The notes under the pieces were generated by a model. That model made no database searches. It was not told where the DNA came from and was given only the letters and a program-made list of their open reading frames with translations. Both the position numbers and the translations under genes were made by a program. Below, in pieces: positions 40,324 to 48,994 of a stretch of 64,000 bases of DNA; position 1 is the first letter of the stretch, and each line of letters begins with the position of its first letter. This stretch comes from Myxococcales bacterium (GTDB lineage: Bacteria > Myxococcota_A > UBA9042): positions 1-64,000 of the forward strand of contig JBBISH010000013.1 of assembly GCA_037441385.1 (NCBI GenBank), in the 5' to 3' direction.

Positions 40324-40863
40324 GTGAACGGCGGACTGCGCAAGGCGATGCTGACGTTGGCCCTGGGCTCGGCGCTGGCCGGCTTGGCGGCGGCAATCGC
40401 TCTGCGCGAGCCTGGGCATCTGCGCACGGATCTGGGCGGCATGGCTGTGCCGATCTTGGCGCTGCCGGTGGTCCGTCCCGAGGGCAGGCCCACGCAGGCG
40501 CGGTTGAGCGCGAGCGATTTCAAGGGTCGGCCGTTACTGCTGCACTTTTGGGCGCCGAGTTGCCGACCGTGCGTCAAGGAACTGCCCCTGTGGCAAAAGC
40601 GCCACGAAGAGGCGGCGGCCCATGGCTATGCGGTGCTGGCGGTAGCTGGCGACGACGCCGAGGACGTGCGGAAATTCCTGAAAGAGGGCAACTACACCCT
40701 GCCGGTGGTGGTGGACGCGACCGGCCAGCTGTTCGAGGCCCTGCGCGTCACGGCGATTCCGGCGACAGCGGCGGTCAATCGGCAAGGCGTCGTCAGCGAG
40801 TACCGCGAGGGTGTCGTGGAGGATCGCGACTTTGCCTCGCTGCTGGCAGCGGCGCGCAAGTAG
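40324..40863 (+). CDS. TlpA/ResA-family thiol-disulfide oxidoreductase
   Basis: TM anchor; FWAPSCRPCVKELP; cis-Pro motif IP. Confidence 0.88.
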   Translation: MNGGLRKAMLTLALGSALAGLAAAIALREPGHLRTDLGGMAVPILALPVVRPEGRPTQARLSASDFKGRPLLLHFWAPSCRPCVKELPLWQKRHEEAAAHGYAVLAVAGDDAEDVRKFLKEGNYTLPVVVDATGQLFEALRVTAIPATAAVNRQGVVSEYREGVVEDRDFASLLAAARK

Positions 40864-42671: not shown

Positions 42672-42860
42672 CTACATGTCCATGCCGCCCATGCTGTTGC
42701 CGTCGGTGTCGGCGGGCGCGTCGCTGCTGGAGCTGCCATCGGAGGTGCTGCCGTCCGTGGCGCTGGCATCGGCGGGATCCTCGTGCTTGGAGGCCTCGCA
42801 GCCCTGAGAAAGCCCCGCCACCAGCATCGCGGCAGCCAGCCAAAAAGCCATGTTCTTCAT
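42672..42860 (-). CDS. Small lipoprotein with acidic linker and MGGMDM tail
   Basis: GAGGG RBS, signal peptide ending SQGC, 62 aa. Confidence 0.65.
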   Translation of the reverse strand: MKNMAFWLAAAMLVAGLSQGCEASKHEDPADASATDGSTSDGSSSSDAPADTDGNSMGGMDM

Positions 42861-42875
42861 TATTCCCTCGCGTTA

Positions 42876-43007
42876 TACCGGTTCCGTGCGAATCGGATCG
42901 AAAACTCAGGCAATTCTTCGGGCCCGAACCGGGGTCCCCGCTTGATTCTCGCCAGTTGCAGATCGGGTCACCGAAACCGTACCAGCGTGAATCAGGTGGG
43001 GTGCGTA
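42876..43007 (+). mobile_element. 132-bp MITE (family A) copy 4
   Basis: Same length and ends as the other copies; flanks TTA/TGG (duplication not preserved). Confidence 0.85.
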
Positions 43008-43015
43008 TGGGCCGG

Positions 43016-44890
43016 TCAGGGCGCCTGGGGCGCCGGCAATCCCAGCACATAGGCCGCCACGGCCGCGGCCTGCTCGGCACTGAGCTGGATGCCGGCGTGG
43101 CGATTGGCCGGCACCAGCGCCGGTTGACTCAAAAGTGTTTGGACATAGCCCGGTTGCAGCCGACGGGCGCTACCGTCAAGGGTTGGCCCCTTCATGGTGC
43201 CGGCCCCAGCGGCCATGTGGCAAGTCGGGCAGCCAAGCTGAGCATACAAGTTGGCGCCATGACTCATCGCTTCGGCCGACGCCGTCGCTGGCTCGGCCAG
43301 GGGCACCCGATCGTCGCCCAGAGCGCCTTGCAGCCACGCGGCCAGCTGCTGAGCCTCGGCCGCCGTCATCCCCAGGATGGGCATGCGCTCGGCCTGATCC
43401 ATGCGCACGGTCACGGGCGACTGCAAGAAATCCTCTAGCCAGGCTCGGTTCAAACGGGCGCCGGCGCCGTCCAAGGCGATACGTGCGACATCGCCGCCGT
43501 GACCGCCGATGCTGTGGCAGACCAGACAGCGGAAGCGGTCGATCAGTCGGCCGGTTTGTCCGGCGGGCAGCCGCAGCTCGGGCGGGTCGTGGTCGCGCAG
43601 CAAGGTGGCGGGCAGTGGAACGGCGCGGAGGCTCGCCAGCGCCGTGCCGACCGCCAGGGCGTCGGCAGCAGTCAGGCCTGGCAGAGTGGGCATCCGCGCT
43701 GGCGCTCCGCCCTTCTGGTCAAAGGCCGTGGGGAGTTGCACCTTGCGGGCGACCCAGCTGGGCAGATCCGGCAGCGCCTCGCCCGTGGCGGTGTGCGGCA
43801 AGTCGACCACGTGGCGATCGCCCAGTCGATCCAGCGCGGGGGCGATCTGGGCGCCCAGTTGGCCCGCCACGCGATGGCAACCCGCGCAGCCCAGATCCGC
43901 AAAGAGCTTCTTGCCTTGCACGGCCTTGGTCGGCTCCACCGGCGCTTCGTACGCCTTCCACGGCGGCTCGCCCGAATCGGCCAGCCACTCCTCGCCGGCG
44001 TAGGTGGCGATGTCCAGCGCTTCTTGGGGGGCAAGGCGGAAGCCAGGCATGCGCGTGTGGGGTCGCAGGCGGTGGGTGTCAACGAGCAGCGTGAAGATCC
44101 AGGCCGGCTGCAGCTTCATGCCGGCCAGGGCCAAGTCGGGCCCCACGTCGCCGCCGCGGCCGTCGATCTTGTGACAGGTGGCACAGCGCCTGGTCGCCAC
44201 AGCCTTTTTGCCGCGCTCGCCGTCGCCGGTCAGGTCCGCAGGCAGCGGCGCCAGGGCCGGACCCGGGACACTCCAAAGGTAGGCGACCAAGGCCTCGATC
44301 TCTTCGGAATTCAGGCGAAACGTTGGCATGCGGTGGCTCGCCTGGAGCTTGCCAGGGTCGGCCAACCAGGCGCGCACAAAGCCCGGCGACACCGCGTCGC
44401 GCAAACCGTCGAGCTCTGGGGCAAAGTCGGGCCGGGGAACGCCAGGGATGGCATGGCAACCGGCGCAGCCTTTGTCGGCCAAAAGCTGGCGACCTTTCGC
44501 CACTTGCGGCACCGGTGCCTGGGCGCCCAGGTGGCAGCGACCGCAGGCGGCGGCCTGCTCGGCTGGTGAGAACAGCGGGCGCTCCCAGTCCATGCTGACC
44601 AAGTGCGCGGCTTCTTTGCGCGTCGCAAAGCCCTGGCCGCCGTGGCAGACGGTGCAGCCAAAGCGTTCGGGCGGATGGGCGTCGTCCAATCCCGCGTGGT
44701 GCTTTGGGTTTTCGTGGCAGAGCTCGCAGCGGTCCACCGCGCCCAAGGCCGGGACAAGCCGCTGCTGAACTTGGGCTGGCCGGCCGGCATCCACGACCAC
44801 CGCATAGCCAAACAGCAGCGCACAGGCCAAGGCCGTCAAAGCGAAAGCCCAATGCAGCCGGTCACTTTGAAGGGCTGAATTGCTGCTCAT
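43016..44890 (-). CDS. Membrane-anchored 8-heme cytochrome c
   Basis: CELCH, CTVCH, CGRCH, CAGCH, CATCH, CAGCH, CLVCH, CPTCH; N-terminal TM; ATGA overlap with cytochrome b. Confidence 0.9.
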   Translation of the reverse strand: MSSNSALQSDRLHWAFALTALACALLFGYAVVVDAGRPAQVQQRLVPALGAVDRCELCHENPKHHAGLDDAHPPERFGCTVCHGGQGFATRKEAAHLVSMDWERPLFSPAEQAAACGRCHLGAQAPVPQVAKGRQLLADKGCAGCHAIPGVPRPDFAPELDGLRDAVSPGFVRAWLADPGKLQASHRMPTFRLNSEEIEALVAYLWSVPGPALAPLPADLTGDGERGKKAVATRRCATCHKIDGRGGDVGPDLALAGMKLQPAWIFTLLVDTHRLRPHTRMPGFRLAPQEALDIATYAGEEWLADSGEPPWKAYEAPVEPTKAVQGKKLFADLGCAGCHRVAGQLGAQIAPALDRLGDRHVVDLPHTATGEALPDLPSWVARKVQLPTAFDQKGGAPARMPTLPGLTAADALAVGTALASLRAVPLPATLLRDHDPPELRLPAGQTGRLIDRFRCLVCHSIGGHGGDVARIALDGAGARLNRAWLEDFLQSPVTVRMDQAERMPILGMTAAEAQQLAAWLQGALGDDRVPLAEPATASAEAMSHGANLYAQLGCPTCHMAAGAGTMKGPTLDGSARRLQPGYVQTLLSQPALVPANRHAGIQLSAEQAAAVAAYVLGLPAPQAP

Positions 44891-46038
44891 TGCGGCCACC
44901 ACATCAGCGCCCAGCCTGGGCCGCGGAACAGCGTGCCGATCACGGTCGTCACCGCCATGAACAGCAACAGCAGGCCAAATAACGCTTGGGCAATCCGGCG
45001 CTCTTTGGGCAGGTACTGACCCACACCCAAAGCATGGGTGTCCATGTAGGGCAGTAGGCACAGACCTAGCACGGTGGCGGCCGGAACGAAGACGCCGCCC
45101 CAAAACGCCGAATAGTGCGCAAGCTCTTGAACACCCAGGAAATACCACGGCGCTTTGGCCGGGTTGGGCGTGCGCGAGGGATCGGCTTCGGGTTCGAGCG
45201 GCGCTTGCAGCCACAGCGCCAGCGCCAACAGTACCGCGGTCGCGGCCAGCGCCACGATCAATTCGCGGTAGACCAAGTGCGGCCACGCCGGCACCAACTT
45301 GTGGCCCTCTTCGCCGCGACCGCCGCCAGGAGCGTTTTCGCTGACGACTAACCCGCCGTCTTTGCGCACGCGGAACAAATGGAAGCCCACGACCAGAAAC
45401 AGGATCGCCGGCAACGCTACGCAGTGCAGCACATAGAAGCGCAAGAGCGCCGACTCGCCCACACTGCGGTCGCCCAGGATCAACTGACGAAAATCGTCAC
45501 CTACGAACGGAACGGCGGCGGCCATGTTGGATCCCACCGTAACCGCCCAATACGCCAACTGATCCCAGGGCAGCAGGTAGCCCGTGAAGCTGAGGGCCAA
45601 GGTCAGGAACCACAGGCCTACGCCCGCCACCCAGTTGGCCTGGCGAGCGCCCTTGTAGCCGCTGACCAGGTAGACGCGGACCATGTGGAGCGTGACCATC
45701 GCCACCATGGCGTGGGCCGCCCAACGGTGGGCGTTGCGGGTCAGCGTGCCCAGCGGCACCACAAAGGCCAGATCCTTCATCGTGCGCCAGGCCGCGTCCG
45801 GGTGGGGAATGTAATAGAACATCAGGTAGATGCCTGTTGCCGTCAGCTGCAAAGCCAGCACCAGCGAGATCAGACCAGCCGCCCAACTGGCGCGGAACTT
45901 CAGACTCTCTGGCCGGATTTTTGGCGCATGCACGTGCAGCACCAGCGACGAGAGCATGGCCTTGACGGCCGAGCGCTCGTCCTGTGGCCAGCCGATGCGC
46001 CACACGGACTTCCAGATGCCCTGCAGCCACTTGCCCAT
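44887..46038 (-). CDS. qcrB: Cytochrome b of a Rieske/cytb complex (b6 plus subunit IV fused)
   Basis: RNAHRW...HMVRV, TGYLLPWDQLAYWA, RFYVLH...H, PAKAPWYF (PEWY equivalent). Confidence 0.93.
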   Translation of the reverse strand: MGKWLQGIWKSVWRIGWPQDERSAVKAMLSSLVLHVHAPKIRPESLKFRASWAAGLISLVLALQLTATGIYLMFYYIPHPDAAWRTMKDLAFVVPLGTLTRNAHRWAAHAMVAMVTLHMVRVYLVSGYKGARQANWVAGVGLWFLTLALSFTGYLLPWDQLAYWAVTVGSNMAAAVPFVGDDFRQLILGDRSVGESALLRFYVLHCVALPAILFLVVGFHLFRVRKDGGLVVSENAPGGGRGEEGHKLVPAWPHLVYRELIVALAATAVLLALALWLQAPLEPEADPSRTPNPAKAPWYFLGVQELAHYSAFWGGVFVPAATVLGLCLLPYMDTHALGVGQYLPKERRIAQALFGLLLLFMAVTTVIGTLFRGPGWALMWWPQ

Positions 46039-46041
46039 GAG

Positions 46042-46500
46042 TTACCCCACTTGCAGGCGCGTATCGCCCGCAACCGTCTGCGCCAGGTCGGCGATGACGT
46101 TGCCGCGGGCGTCGCGGATCAGGCGCACGAAACTCAGGTCGCGGGGCGCCGGTCCACCCGTGACATGGCCCTGGTCGTCGTAGGTGCTACCGTGGCAGGG
46201 GCAGACGAAGCCGCCGCCGGCCGCCTCGCGCACCGTGCAGCCCAAGTGGGTGCAGGTCGACGACATCGCCGACAGCCCCTTGGGATCGTGGCGCACGAAC
46301 AGCCCGGCGTCGTCGACATAGACGCGGCCCCCGGCGAACCGCCCGACTTGCCCCAGGTTGCGGCGCTGCGACGGCCCGTAGCTGACCGGCGCTTTGGCAA
46401 ACCGCAGGCTGGCCCAGGCGGCCTCAGCGCTGAGCGCCACCAAGGCCGCGCCGCCGATCTGACCCAAGAACTTGCGACGACTGGTGTTTTGCTGTTCCAT
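46042..46500 (-). CDS. qcrA: Rieske 2Fe-2S protein with Tat signal
   Basis: SRRKFL, CTHLGC, CPCHGS, GPAPRDL. Confidence 0.93.
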
Positions 46501-46519
46501 TCGACTCAGCCCTCCAACT

Positions 46520-47116
46520 TTACTTGGCTTTCAAGGTGACGGCGACCGCGGCTGGCGCGCCTGCGGCGACCGTGACTTGGATGTCAGCGGCGCCCAGCTT
46601 TTCGTGCCACACGCCCAAGGTGTAGTTGCCCGGAGCCAGGCTACTCAGGGTGAACTTGCCCTCCTTGTCGCTGACGGCGAACTGGGCGGTGTCCAGCACC
46701 ACCACGTAGGCGATCATGTCGTCGTGGACCTTGCAGAGCTGGCGGTAGATGCCCGACTTGGCAAAAACGTGGGACTTCTTCTGCCCTTGCGGCCAGGTGC
46801 CCAGGTCGTACTTGTCGCCGTCGATGGTGTAGACGTTGTGGGCCACCGGGTCCGAGTTCAAGAACTCCACCGTCCAGCCGCGGGCGATCGGCAGGATCCG
46901 CGGCAAGAACACCATGCCTTTTTGGTCCAGCGTCACGGTCTTGGCGCCCAGCGGCGCGGCCGGGCCCTGCTTGACGTAGACGATGGCGCCCGCGCGGTGC
47001 TTGGGGATCGGCGCGGCCACGGTGCCCGCGATCGAGCCGGTATCGGCCAGGGCGGTCGGGCCCCAGAAAAGAGTAGTCGAAATCAGCGAAATCAGGGTCA
47101 ACAGACGAGCCAGCAT
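46520..47116 (-). CDS. Secreted cupredoxin-domain protein with carboxypeptidase-regulatory-like domain
   Basis: Signal peptide; NSDPVAHNV and CKVHDDM (His, Cys, His, Met type-1 Cu ligands); VWHE. Confidence 0.8.
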
Positions 47117-47146
47117 GGCGTCCTCCAGGGTCCGTAGAACAGGGGG

Positions 47147-48466
47147 TTAGAAAGCGGCCGAAAAACCAGCCGAGACCGCGCGCAAGTCCGCCTTGGTGCC
47201 GGGATCCGCACCCACGCCGACATCGGCGCGGAGCAGCAGGTTCGGCCGCAGGATCCAAGTGCCTTGCAGCGAGGCAAGATAGCGCTGATCGGGCTTGCCC
47301 TCGCCGTAGTCCAGGCTGCTGCCCTCGAAGCGGATCGTGGGCACCACCACCGCGTTGACCATGTAGGTCAGCTCGGCAAACAGCATGTCCATCGTCATCT
47401 TCTGCCCGGCGGTGGCGGTGGGCTGGCTATGGCTTTGGCGCACGCCCACCACGTCCAGCAGCAAGTCGTCGAATACGCCGTGCAAGTCCACGCCGATGCG
47501 CAGGAAATCGTCGTCATGGATGGCCATGCCGTTGGCGGCTAGCAGACCGCTGCGGCCCGACCAGGCCGAAAAGCCCAAGGAGAGACTGCGCTCGCTCCAA
47601 GCTGCCGCGCCCGCCGCCGCGTCGGCGCCGTCCAAACGCATACCGCCCAGCTTGTACTCCAGCCGGCCGTAGAAGTTCTTGTGCGCGTCGGTGCTGGCCG
47701 GCACCGTTTCGGCGACGCCCAGGGCCCACGCCGCCCGGCCAAAGGCCACGCCGGACAGTTCAAGGCCAGTCGAGCTCATTTCGGGCGAGAAGCCGTTGAG
47801 TTGCACGGTGTTGGTGGTCAAACGCAGTTGGTGATTGAAGATGCCGCGGTGGATCGACACGCCATGCAGCTCGGGCTCGAAGCGGCCCACCCGCACATGC
47901 AGCGCCGTGGGCCCGGCCGGCGTCAGCACCGCAAAGGCGCGCTCGACGCTAATGGGCTCGTGACCGCCCACGTCGATCGAGCCAAAGTAACCGCCGATTT
48001 CGCCAAGCGTTCCGCCCGAGCGCAGGCCGATGTGCCCGCCCAGACCGCCCAGGGCCAGCGCGTTTTCGTTGTGGCCTTCGGGCATCTCCATCCCGGCCAT
48101 CGCGGCACCCTCGTGGTGCCCCTCGGGCTCGGGGCCAAAGGTCATCTTGCCGTCGACCAGCAGCGACAGCGGCAGCTGACGGGCGACCTGACCGGGCCAA
48201 ACCGCAGCTGGGTAGCGGTCTTTCATCGCGTCGTTGCCCAGCGGCAGCGGCTCTTCCTTTTCGGCCGTCGCGTCACCGCCACCCGGGAAGCGGTAGGCAT
48301 TGCGGCGGAAGGCCTCGCCAAATGGCGTGAGCTTGGGGAAGGCGACGTGGCAGGTCTGACAGCTGGTCTCGTAGCGGCGGGCAAAGGCCGGAATAGCCTG
48401 CGCCTGACCGGCCAGCAACAGCACGGTCATGGCCGCACACAGGGCGGCGATACGCTGAAAAAGCAT
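47147..48466 (-). CDS. Cyc2-like cytochrome c-porin fusion
   Basis: Signal peptide ending AQA, then IPAFARRYETSCQTCH...PKLTPFG..F...Y; beta-strand body; C-terminal Phe; AGGAG RBS. Confidence 0.8.
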   Translation of the reverse strand: MLFQRIAALCAAMTVLLLAGQAQAIPAFARRYETSCQTCHVAFPKLTPFGEAFRRNAYRFPGGGDATAEKEEPLPLGNDAMKDRYPAAVWPGQVARQLPLSLLVDGKMTFGPEPEGHHEGAAMAGMEMPEGHNENALALGGLGGHIGLRSGGTLGEIGGYFGSIDVGGHEPISVERAFAVLTPAGPTALHVRVGRFEPELHGVSIHRGIFNHQLRLTTNTVQLNGFSPEMSSTGLELSGVAFGRAAWALGVAETVPASTDAHKNFYGRLEYKLGGMRLDGADAAAGAAAWSERSLSLGFSAWSGRSGLLAANGMAIHDDDFLRIGVDLHGVFDDLLLDVVGVRQSHSQPTATAGQKMTMDMLFAELTYMVNAVVVPTIRFEGSSLDYGEGKPDQRYLASLQGTWILRPNLLLRADVGVGADPGTKADLRAVSAGFSAAF

Positions 48467-48550
48467 AGGAAACTCCTGAATTGTGAACACAAGGCCAGGG
48501 CCGCGGCAGAGTCAGCCGGCAGCCGACGATCCAAGGGCGATCGCGCGGGC

Positions 48551-48994
48551 CTAGATGCGCAAACTCAGGGTAAGCAAGTAGGTGGGGGTGTCAGGATCGG
48601 GCGGGGCGCGGGCGCGCACCACCTGCGACTGCGCGGCCGACTGCACCAGCAGCAGGGCTTGCGGCTGCGGCGTGGCCACCGCGCCGGGCGGCGTGGCCAA
48701 GTGCTGGGCAGTGGCGTCGGGCGCAAGCTCGGCGTCGGGATGGTGGGGACTGTGGTCGCCGCAGTCGCACGATCCCTCGTCGTGCCAACCGGGGGACTGG
48801 CGAAGCTTGGCGCAGCAAGCGTGTTCAGGCTCGGCGCCGGTGAGGATCTTGCTGACCGCGCAAGAACCGCACAAGCACAGGTGTTCCACGCCGGAGAACT
48901 GCACCAGAGCCATGACGAGCATGACCAGGGCGGTCCAAAGGTGACGAACGCGCTTGAGCACCACAGCCAACCGACGCCGGCCAAATGCCGACAT
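48551..48994 (-). CDS. DUF2946/CruR-like leader protein with Cys/His cluster and RAPP motif
   Basis: Hydrophobic N-segment, CLCGSC, HACC, CDCGDHSPHH, VVRARAPP near the C-terminus; start uncertain. Confidence 0.65.
   Translation of the reverse strand: MSAFGRRRLAVVLKRVRHLWTALVMLVMALVQFSGVEHLCLCGSCAVSKILTGAEPEHACCAKLRQSPGWHDEGSCDCGDHSPHHPDAELAPDATAQHLATPPGAVATPQPQALLLVQSAAQSQVVRARAPPDPDTPTYLLTLSLRI

Follow-up and report, generated by a model that had tools for sequence, protein, structure and literature searches.

A Cyc2-type haem-porin and a cupredoxin encoded with a Rieske/cytochrome b complex: a candidate electron conduit between outer membrane and quinone pool

The window analysed here is a 64,000-nucleotide (nt) stretch of an uncultured Myxococcales genome. 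At 42672-48994 it carries an operon encoding a Cyc2-type fused cytochrome-porin, a type-1 copper protein (cupredoxin), a Rieske/cytochrome b complex and, along with it, an octahaem cytochrome c. The sequences provide good support for the proposal that these proteins would form an electron conduit between the outer membrane and the quinone pool. A sequence-only reading of the same DNA had suggested as much, and it is the best reading of the synteny, in which a dedicated quinone-pool complex lies beside the porin-cupredoxin pair. Gene neighbourhoods, together with the changes of partner on a tree of porins, show that the constant core of the system is the porin plus the cupredoxin, and that this core has been joined repeatedly to different quinone-pool enzymes.

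Organization of the operon

Seven co-oriented open reading frames (ORFs) lie on the minus strand at 42672-48994, with plus-strand genes on either side. In gene order they are:

48551..48994, minus strand: 147-amino-acid (aa) Cys/His-rich protein with one hydrophobic helix; CLCGSC, HACC and CDCG motifs, C-terminal RARAPP...LRI
47147..48466, minus strand: Cyc2-type fused cytochrome-porin of 439 aa; signal peptide, monohaem domain, predicted 16-strand barrel
46520..47116, minus strand: predicted periplasmic type-1 copper protein with an immunoglobulin (Ig)-like CarboxypepD_reg domain; Pfam, copper ligands, model
46042..46500, minus strand: Rieske [2Fe-2S] subunit with a twin-arginine signal; SRRKFL, CTHLGC, CPCHGSTY
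44887..46038, minus strand: fused cytochrome b (b6-like plus subunit-IV-like); Pfam, Qo motif APWY
43016..44890, minus strand: predicted membrane-anchored octahaem cytochrome c; eight CxxCH, N-terminal hydrophobic helix
42672..42860, minus strand: 62-aa acidic low-complexity ORF, doubtful as a gene; possible signal peptide plus Cys

Six of these are real genes and one small ORF is doubtful. A co-oriented block bounded by plus-strand genes is consistent with the genes being packaged as one unit, and both motifs and Pfam matches agree with the parts as the sequence-only reading had named them (a haem porin, a type-1 copper protein, a twin-arginine Rieske protein, cytochrome b and an eight-haem cytochrome). 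The intergenic gaps in gene order are 84, 30, 19, 3, -4 and 155 nt, i.e. 84 nt separate the upstream ORF from the porin gene, 155 nt lie ahead of the last small ORF, and the octahaem cytochrome c gene overlaps the stop of cytochrome b by 4 nt. The gaps of 19, 3 and -4 nt are those given before, and they indicate co-translation units; the 54 nt formerly placed between porin and cupredoxin becomes 30 nt with the cupredoxin start at ATG 47116, which is the start that aligns with relatives. A Shine-Dalgarno sequence, AGGAG, lies 7 nt ahead of the porin ATG. No sigma-70-like promoter was found, and terminator-like sites were no commoner than in shuffled sequence. A sigma-54 consensus matched 104 times where 107 matches were expected, with none upstream of the operon. 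A search of sequencing runs for the stretch listed three DNA runs, all from one study, and no RNA run; one DNA run contains 99% of the sampled words of the stretch.

Conservation across related loci

A scan of species-representative genomes found 340 relatives, from which 79 loci were kept, all in metagenome-assembled genomes (MAGs). They come from Myxococcota, Ignavibacteriota, Bacteroidota, Acidobacteriota, Eisenbacteria, Krumholzibacteriia and Calditrichaceae. Neighbours were counted by tblastn with the window proteins and with proteins taken from the loci:

Cupredoxin, on the same strand as the porin: 70 of 79 loci
Rieske protein: 52 of 79
Cytochrome b: 51 of 79
Octahaem homologue, downstream: 45 of 79
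GltD-like NAD(P) FeS-flavoprotein, between cupredoxin and Rieske: 27 of 79
ActB: 9 of 79
Sigma-54 response regulator: 34 of 79
Sensor kinase: 32 of 79
Multicopper oxidase: 6 of 79
CuA/COX2-like cytochrome c protein: 6 of 79

The loci that have no cupredoxin are mostly cut by the end of a contig. These counts bear out the synteny that was looked for, and support conservation of the gene combination far beyond chance across several phyla.

The quinone-pool partner is best seen at the 57 loci with at least 6.5 kb downstream, where 44 have Rieske plus cytochrome b, seven have alternative complex III, and six have something else. Alternative complex III was recognized by Pfam (Molybdopterin/FeS for ActB, NrfD for ActC, and ActD). 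Five of the six other loci encode CuA-type proteins, three of these together with a weakly NapH-like membrane protein, and in two of the six a multicopper oxidase lies just upstream. This third kind of partner (L030:9238-14657, L056:5583-9970, L060:9292-14653 and L079:10571-13951) includes a membrane protein of ~490-550 aa (669 aa in the fused form at L060), which is weakly similar to NapH/MauN (25-29 bits). With it are between one and three proteins resembling CuA/COX2 or the C-terminal part of NosZ, some of them cytochrome c fusions. On a quick maximum-likelihood tree of 78 porins (6 of 84 were left out, the ORF being cut or too short) the partner label changes at least 18 times, compared with a minimum of 5 and a mean of 42 for shuffled labels. 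One well-supported clade of four rows mixes alternative complex III and Rieske/cytochrome b partners.

We note some further features of these loci. A sensor kinase (dCache/HAMP/PAS) and a sigma-54 response regulator lie beside the porin at L029:3472-7989 and 33 other loci. The window operon has neither adjacent to it, and the 147-aa Cys/His-rich protein stands in their place. Recurrent neighbours of 445 aa were considered as ActC; by Pfam they are mostly sigma-54 response regulators. In one Myxococcota MAG the whole cluster is present in three copies on three contigs (L017, L018 and L061). At L016:8001-11500 a gap of 1.7 kb separates porin and cupredoxin, and the 110,891-base contig of this locus holds two porin homologues with adjoining locus tags, so that there are probably two tandem porin genes.

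The haem-porin

The porin begins with a signal peptide, a hydrophobic N-terminus ending AQA, followed by IPAFARRYETSCQTCHVAFPKL. Its haem-domain motif reads PAFARRY...CQTCH...PKL. There is a single CxxCH in the protein, at residue 36 of 439, and P44 and L46 are invariant among 37 aligned relatives. The length exceeds the minimum of at least 365 aa used for Cyc2. The screen of Keffer et al. 2021 (PMC8406198), as far as its description was available to us, uses PXFAR[Q/K][T/Y] upstream of CXXCH; in PAFARRY the P, F, A, R and Y fit, and the sixth position is R. This position is K in 9 of the 37 aligned relatives. A strict regular-expression screen would consequently drop the window porin and its clade.

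The porin has no match in Pfam or NCBIfam, and a sequence search of the PDB gave a sole, chance-level match to a nine-haem cytochrome (expect value (E) 0.94). Homology to Cyc2-type proteins came from a tblastn search of plasmid records, where nine were matched (from Ralstonia, Caballeronia, Paraburkholderia and Methylocystis), over porin residues 2-76 only. The Ralstonia ORF has PAFARQT...CMACH...PEL and a C-terminal Phe. Alignment of the porin family profile with this ORF by hhalign gave a probability of 97.6% and E 3.6e-12 over 52 columns, none of them in the barrel. Homology confined to the N-terminus with a predicted barrel behind it is the pattern described for Cyc2 relatives (He 2017, PMC5566968, in the text available). 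These comparisons were made with plasmid-borne Cyc2-type ORFs, not with the Acidithiobacillus ferrooxidans, Leptospirillum or PV-1 sequences.

An AlphaFold2 model calculated from the 37-sequence alignment has a mean predicted local distance difference test score (pLDDT) of 75.5 and a predicted template modelling score of 0.78. It has 16 strands between residues 100 and 438, running up to the C-terminal Phe. A barrel with a haem plug had been expected; the barrel is modelled, and the haem domain is poorly predicted (pLDDT <50). Foldseek matched the model to 16-strand porins, among which OprP (2o4v) ranked 7th and OprO (4rjw) 26th; these two are named as structural relatives of Cyc2 by Keffer et al. 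(PMC8406198) in the text available. Thus the haem-domain homology and the model together support a Cyc2 haem domain fused to a predicted 16-strand barrel, i.e. the architecture that the sequence-only reading had recognized from PxFAR-CxxCH-PxL plus a barrel.

The porin is single-copy in the source genome. There were 666 homologues at E <=0.001 among 7995 scored candidates, and in a library clustered at 50% identity the family comprises 4045, 1632 and 390 clusters at E <=1e-3, 1e-10 and 1e-30, respectively. Matches were found in 36 of 401 sampled Myxococcota genomes, and in 13 of 28 from the window's own family. Among the 120 homologues listed, the names given were all 'hypothetical protein', as was the one name returned for ten representatives looked up. 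In the ESM Atlas the porin falls in unnamed clusters and in one where 12% of members carry Porin_O_P.

The cupredoxin

The copper protein scores 24.1 bits with Copper-bind PF00127 (cut-off 21.2) and 40.9 bits, also over the cut-off, with CarboxypepD_reg PF13620. Residues H93, C128, H131 and M134 are invariant in 32 sequences, and the copper loop is amicyanin-like, C-x2-H-x2-M. Profile matches include amicyanin, plastocyanin, pseudoazurin and the cupredoxin domain of NirK. The model has pLDDT 93.0, and amicyanin superposes on it with a root-mean-square deviation of 1.5-2.0 Å over ~86 columns. The protein therefore has the His/Cys/His/Met ligands and, in the model, the cupredoxin fold that define a type-1 copper protein.

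The Rieske/cytochrome b complex and the octahaem cytochrome

Both subunits of the Rieske/cytochrome b pair score over Pfam cut-offs (PF00355, PF00033, PF13631 and PF00032). The Rieske protein has the twin-arginine motif SRRKFL and the boxes CTHLGC and CPCHGSTY, so that the Ser and Tyr hydrogen-bond donors are both there. In cytochrome b (PF00033 at 139.8 bits, PF00032 at 24.7 bits) the b6 and subunit IV parts are fused, and the best PDB matches are cytochrome b6. There is no Cys in its N-terminal region before the first hydrophobic stretch, the part of b6 that carries the Cys binding haem cN. At the Qo site the motif reads APWY (residues ~290-300); it is the same in all 47 cytochrome b sequences found, including the paralogue on contig C36 of the source genome, and is not PEWY, PDWY or PVWY.

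The residues after the second Rieske box divide the loci. Ser/Tyr is found in the window and 20 loci, none of which has the flavoprotein, whereas Ser/Phe is found at 32 loci, 26 with it; the loci are related, so these counts are not independent. The choice of Ser/Tyr or Ser/Phe, and the APWY motif, may bear on the energetics of the complex.

The octahaem cytochrome c has eight CxxCH, the first four closely spaced (c7/c3-like), and scores 118.7 bits with Cytochrom_C over four class-I stretches and 29.2 bits with Cytochrome_C7. Its one N-terminal hydrophobic helix starts around residues 12-18. Among NCBIfam models, those of the Geobacter ext cluster come closest to the cytochrome b and c subunits, with each score below its cut-off (ExtP 228.7 bits, cut-off 290; ExtQ 65.6, 150; ExtS 83.9, 100), and the Rieske protein gave no NCBIfam ExtO match. 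On these scores the subunits would not be classed as Ext equivalogs.

The flanking small ORFs

The 147-aa ORF has no match in Pfam or NCBIfam. By tblastn it lies upstream of the porin at L002 and L003 (65-68%) and, weakly and in a looser run, at L006. Aligned with three relatives it has 36-69% identity and invariant Cys motifs; the C-terminal RARAPP/RAPP stretch is kept in three of the four sequences, and is SGGPPS in the most distant, L006. It had been taken for a leader ORF, a role that finds no support in what is a conserved Cys/His-rich protein with a hydrophobic helix. The 62-aa ORF was matched by tblastn at L002 only, over part of its length (59%, 38 bits); it has no Pfam family and one weak N-terminal NCBIfam match (19.8 bits, cut-off 400). 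The sequence leading up to its Cys (LSQGC) departs from the usual lipobox, and its former description as a small lipoprotein is doubtful. The 62-aa ORF may not be a gene.

Elsewhere in the window, the translation of the plus-strand ORF at 40324-40863 has a WAPSCRPC motif and looks like a TlpA/ResA-type periplasmic thiol-disulfide oxidoreductase. Such enzymes serve in maturation of cytochrome c or of copper centres.

Genome background of the carriers

The source genome is a MAG of 6.6 Mb in 221 contigs, 90.9% complete. It has two haem-copper oxidase genes on contig C1 and alternative complex III on C25; no cytochrome bd was found in it, and its matches to the GltD-like flavoprotein lie on other contigs, not in the window operon. 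A paralogous Rieske/cytochrome b module that lacks a porin lies on the minus strand at C36:3566-9450 (L088). This encodes a 2x[4Fe-4S] ferredoxin, a cupredoxin-like protein, a 756-aa multihaem cytochrome c, a Rieske protein (CPCHGSGF), cytochrome b and subunit IV. Its cupredoxin-like protein is longer, with a CarboxypepD_reg domain and the copper ligands kept, and its cytochrome b is split. Since the genome has both alternative complex III and this second module, the window complex is accessory, not housekeeping.

Markers were surveyed in the source genome and ten carriers from seven lineages, the completeness of the ten not being known. A haem-copper oxidase is present in 11 of 11, and an ActD match (alternative complex III) in 10 of 11. 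The large subunit of RuBisCO was found in none of the eleven; RuBisCO was the one carbon-fixation marker searched. No genome had UbiG over the cut-off, which 2 of 14 controls exceeded, and a futalosine-pathway domain was found in 6 of 11. The UbiG result suggests that the quinone of the carriers is probably menaquinone. Four of the ten carriers gave no cytochrome b match other than the porin-linked one, and in one of these (G010) ActD was not found either.

Direction of electron flow

Of the two directions we narrowly prefer flow from quinol to the outside, giving it less than an even chance. The Rieske/cytochrome b complex would run forward, oxidizing menaquinol, and would conserve energy. 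The high-potential electron would then pass from the octahaem subunit to the cupredoxin, and leave via the single porin haem, reducing a dissolved acceptor of high potential outside the cell, for instance Fe(III) or Mn(III) complexed by a ligand. For a heterotroph with oxygen reductases this could be a second respiratory outlet at oxic-anoxic boundaries. Gene content, motifs, folds (as models) and the conserved synteny with its repeated reshuffling are observed; localization, cofactor loading, each electron-transfer step, their direction and the acceptor are inferred.

Flow in this direction makes the operon self-contained, since it would supply the enzyme for entry, the wire, the shuttle and the way out. 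Rieske/cytochrome b complexes, alternative complex III and NapH-type proteins are quinol oxidizers in characterized relatives, and that all three kinds of partner are of this type supports flow from quinol to the outside. We know of no way in which NapH-type proteins could run uphill. With RuBisCO found in none of the eleven genomes and menaquinone the probable quinone, reverse flow has no evident need, and pushing electrons in from a copper and Ser/Tyr-Rieske chain would be steeply uphill. Export is also supported by the resemblance of the 27 flavoprotein-bearing relatives to Kuenenia complexes, for which a bifurcation needing a high-potential sink has been proposed, and by the closest NCBIfam models being those of a Geobacter cluster tied to selenite and tellurite reduction.

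Several observations weigh against export. To our knowledge no Cyc2 homologue reduces anything. Those with reported activity, i.e. A. ferrooxidans Cyc2, Leptospirillum Cyt572 and Ghiorsea Cyc2 (PMC8406198, PMC7029218, PMC13692758) and PV-1 Cyc2 (Keffer 2021), all oxidize Fe(II) in the accounts available to us. Genes for HiPIP and c-type cytochromes adjoin cyc2 in Caballeronia and Methylocystis, and multicopper oxidases lie beside the porin at six loci; both fit oxidation. Haem-copper oxidases in all eleven genomes make a route from Fe(II) to O2 available. Type-1 copper proteins are high-potential carriers, at roughly +180 to +370 mV, so that an outward chain would serve only unusually oxidizing soluble acceptors. 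The only neutrophilic Cyc2 haem measured, according to the text available, is at -130 mV (PMC13692758), and with a haem near that potential here the transfer from cupredoxin to haem would be strongly uphill. Finally, at another four loci the porin-cupredoxin pair has no quinol-oxidizing module within ~9 kb. Three near-complete Myxococcota genomes and a MAG supply these loci, one of which is the same stretch as L046. Their neighbours include sigma-54 regulators, a second cupredoxin or a dihaem cytochrome c.

Electron uptake is almost as likely as export. Dissolved Fe(II) would be oxidized at the porin haem and the electron passed to the cupredoxin, and from there it could take one of two routes. 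The tested Cyc2 homologues cited above and the homology of the haem domain with Cyc2-type ORFs speak for this, as do the oxidases in all eleven genomes and the multicopper oxidases near six loci. Rusticyanin offers a precedent for a cupredoxin acceptor (He 2017, PMC5566968, as far as available). The porin-less module on C36 suggests that a cupredoxin is the normal acceptor of such complexes, and in G010, where neither a second cytochrome b match nor ActD was found, the complex probably has a part in aerobic respiration too. In one route, which we consider unlikely, the cupredoxin would be a hub feeding a haem-copper oxidase, with the Rieske/cytochrome b complex running forward and feeding the same pool from quinol. 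Every part would then work in its usual direction, but the operon would have two inputs and no output. This would leave unexplained why a dedicated quinol-oxidizing module lies beside more than 90% of well-flanked porin-cupredoxin pairs, when an ActD match is present elsewhere in 10 of the 11 genomes. In the other route, still less likely in our view, the Rieske/cytochrome b complex would run backwards and drive the electron uphill to the quinone pool, as the PetI branch does in Acidithiobacillus. The sequence-only reading had drawn this analogy. It fits poorly with the eleven carriers, which have neither a RuBisCO match nor a UbiG equivalog, because driving electrons uphill into what is probably a menaquinone pool would cost energy and serve no evident purpose; moreover the NapH-like partners have no known coupling for reversal.

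A further possibility is that the Rieske/cytochrome b complex, the octahaem cytochrome and the cupredoxin form an alternative aerobic branch, and that the porin is non-respiratory, serving for instance in removal of Fe(II) or Cu(I) at the cell surface, iron sensing or entry of a redox-active solute. A porin-less module of the same type does exist on C36, the barrel is similar to those of solute porins, and a detoxifying role has been suggested for Cyc2. The 147-aa Cys/His-rich protein and the sigma-54 regulators at 34 of 79 loci hint at metal-responsive control, and a role for Cyc2 in iron sensing is raised in the available text of a Sideroxydans paper (PMC12016527). Yet the haem motif is invariant, and across phyla and three partner complexes nothing accompanies the cupredoxin as constantly as the porin does, a pattern not easily explained unless the two exchange electrons. 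We therefore think this quite unlikely. That the genes do not work together at all, lying side by side incidentally or through an artefact of binning or assembly, is hardly credible. The genome is a MAG of many contigs, and the search for promoter and terminator consensus sequences came up empty; against this, the same gene order is found on long contigs of many independent assemblies, the spacing of the central genes indicates co-translation, and one sequencing run carries almost all of the sampled words.

Significance

Every part of the operon belongs to a known family, and a chain of Cyc2, cupredoxin and bc complex is known in concept from Acidithiobacillus. In the literature searched, subscription papers lying outside it, we found no account of the operon as a Cyc2-cupredoxin-Rieske/cytochrome b cluster, of its spread over several phyla of non-autotrophs, or of the exchange of one quinone-pool partner for another. 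Neither Myxococcota nor these locus tags figure in the supplement of PMC12442345. A large branch of the Cyc2 family, comprising the 390 clusters at E <=1e-30, sits in an operon with its own quinone-pool complex, in carriers that have oxygen reductases and in which RuBisCO was not found.

It is possible, rather than probable, that the operon represents a widespread respiratory branch in non-autotrophs of several phyla, running from an energy-conserving quinol oxidase, either Rieske/cytochrome b or, in other lineages, alternative complex III, through a blue copper protein and a Cyc2-type haem-porin to soluble high-potential metal complexes beyond the cell. Cyc2 is used as a metagenome marker for iron oxidation, as in FeGenie-type surveys, and Myxococcota matches have already been so counted (bioRxiv 2022.03.26.485925, in the part available). 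If flow is outward, such counts over-estimate iron oxidation, since Cyc2 would also mark electron export, and there would be a new copper-dependent, energy-conserving route of extracellular respiration. If flow is inward, lakes, peat, soils and groundwater would harbour many heterotrophs that oxidize iron cryptically. The flavoprotein-bearing relatives also offer a candidate high-potential partner for anammox-type complexes; for one of the two such complexes the driving reaction is described as unknown in the text available (PMC12954380).

Comparison with known systems

The chain of A. ferrooxidans comprises Cyc2, rusticyanin, CycA1/Cyc1, the PetI bc1 complex and an aa3 oxidase (He 2017, PMC5566968; PMC10654088), and on those descriptions, so far as available, it shares with the window a Cyc2-type haem-porin, a periplasmic cupredoxin and a Rieske/cytochrome b complex able to reach the quinone pool. 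The window differs in having everything in one operon, with an octahaem subunit in place of cytochrome c1 and a cupredoxin that bears an Ig-like domain. The dihaem c4 (Cyc1/CycA1) and cox genes of Acidithiobacillus have no counterpart among the seven ORFs, and hosts of the window type lack a RuBisCO match or UbiG equivalog (0 of 11 for each). With the Cyc2-type plasmid ORFs compared here, only the ~50-residue haem domain of the window porin can be aligned.

The extHIJKLMNOPQS cluster of Geobacter sulfurreducens encodes the porin ExtI, c-type cytochromes, the Rieske protein ExtO, cytochrome b as ExtP/ExtQ, and ExtS; the phenotype tested was reduction of selenite and tellurite (PMC5877670). It shares with the window an OprP-like porin gene clustered with c-type cytochromes and a Rieske/cytochrome b core, and ExtP, ExtQ and ExtS are the models that give the window cytochrome b and c subunits their highest scores. 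A porin clustered with Rieske/cytochrome b thus already has a precedent. In the available text ExtI is described as a porin with no mention of a haem domain, and the cluster has no cupredoxin and includes a rhodanese and cytochromes with 5 to 12 haems (PMC5877670).

In Kuenenia stuttgartiensis the complexes Kustd1480-1485 and Kuste4569-4574 have a b6-like cytochrome b with subunit IV, hexa- or octahaem cytochromes c replacing cytochrome f/c1, and Ser/Tyr or Ser/Phe Rieske signatures. The bifurcation proposed for them requires a sink of high potential on the side of cytochrome c (PMC12954380, for both points as far as its text was available). They share a gene for a GltD-like NAD(P) flavoprotein with 27 relatives of the window operon. 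The window operon itself differs in lacking this gene and in its fused cytochrome b, while the Kuenenia complexes have no link to a porin or cupredoxin.

The neutrophilic iron oxidizers Mariprofundus and Gallionellaceae are RuBisCO autotrophs with ubiquinone. The model for them comprises Cyc2, Cyc1, and alternative complex III or bc1 (He 2017; Tenderiales preprint, each in the part available). As in the window, the proposed route to the quinone pool has a porin of the Cyc2 type, a high-potential carrier in the periplasm and an enzyme of the complex III type. There the link was inferred from co-occurrence in genomes, the available text describing no shared operon, and the carriers are cytochromes rather than cupredoxins. 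Eight relatives of the window operon likewise have alternative complex III beside the porin.

The quinol-oxidizing alternative complex III of Chloroflexus reduces the blue copper protein auracyanin. That system differs from the one described here in having no outer-membrane haem-porin, the electron passing instead to an oxidase or a reaction centre.

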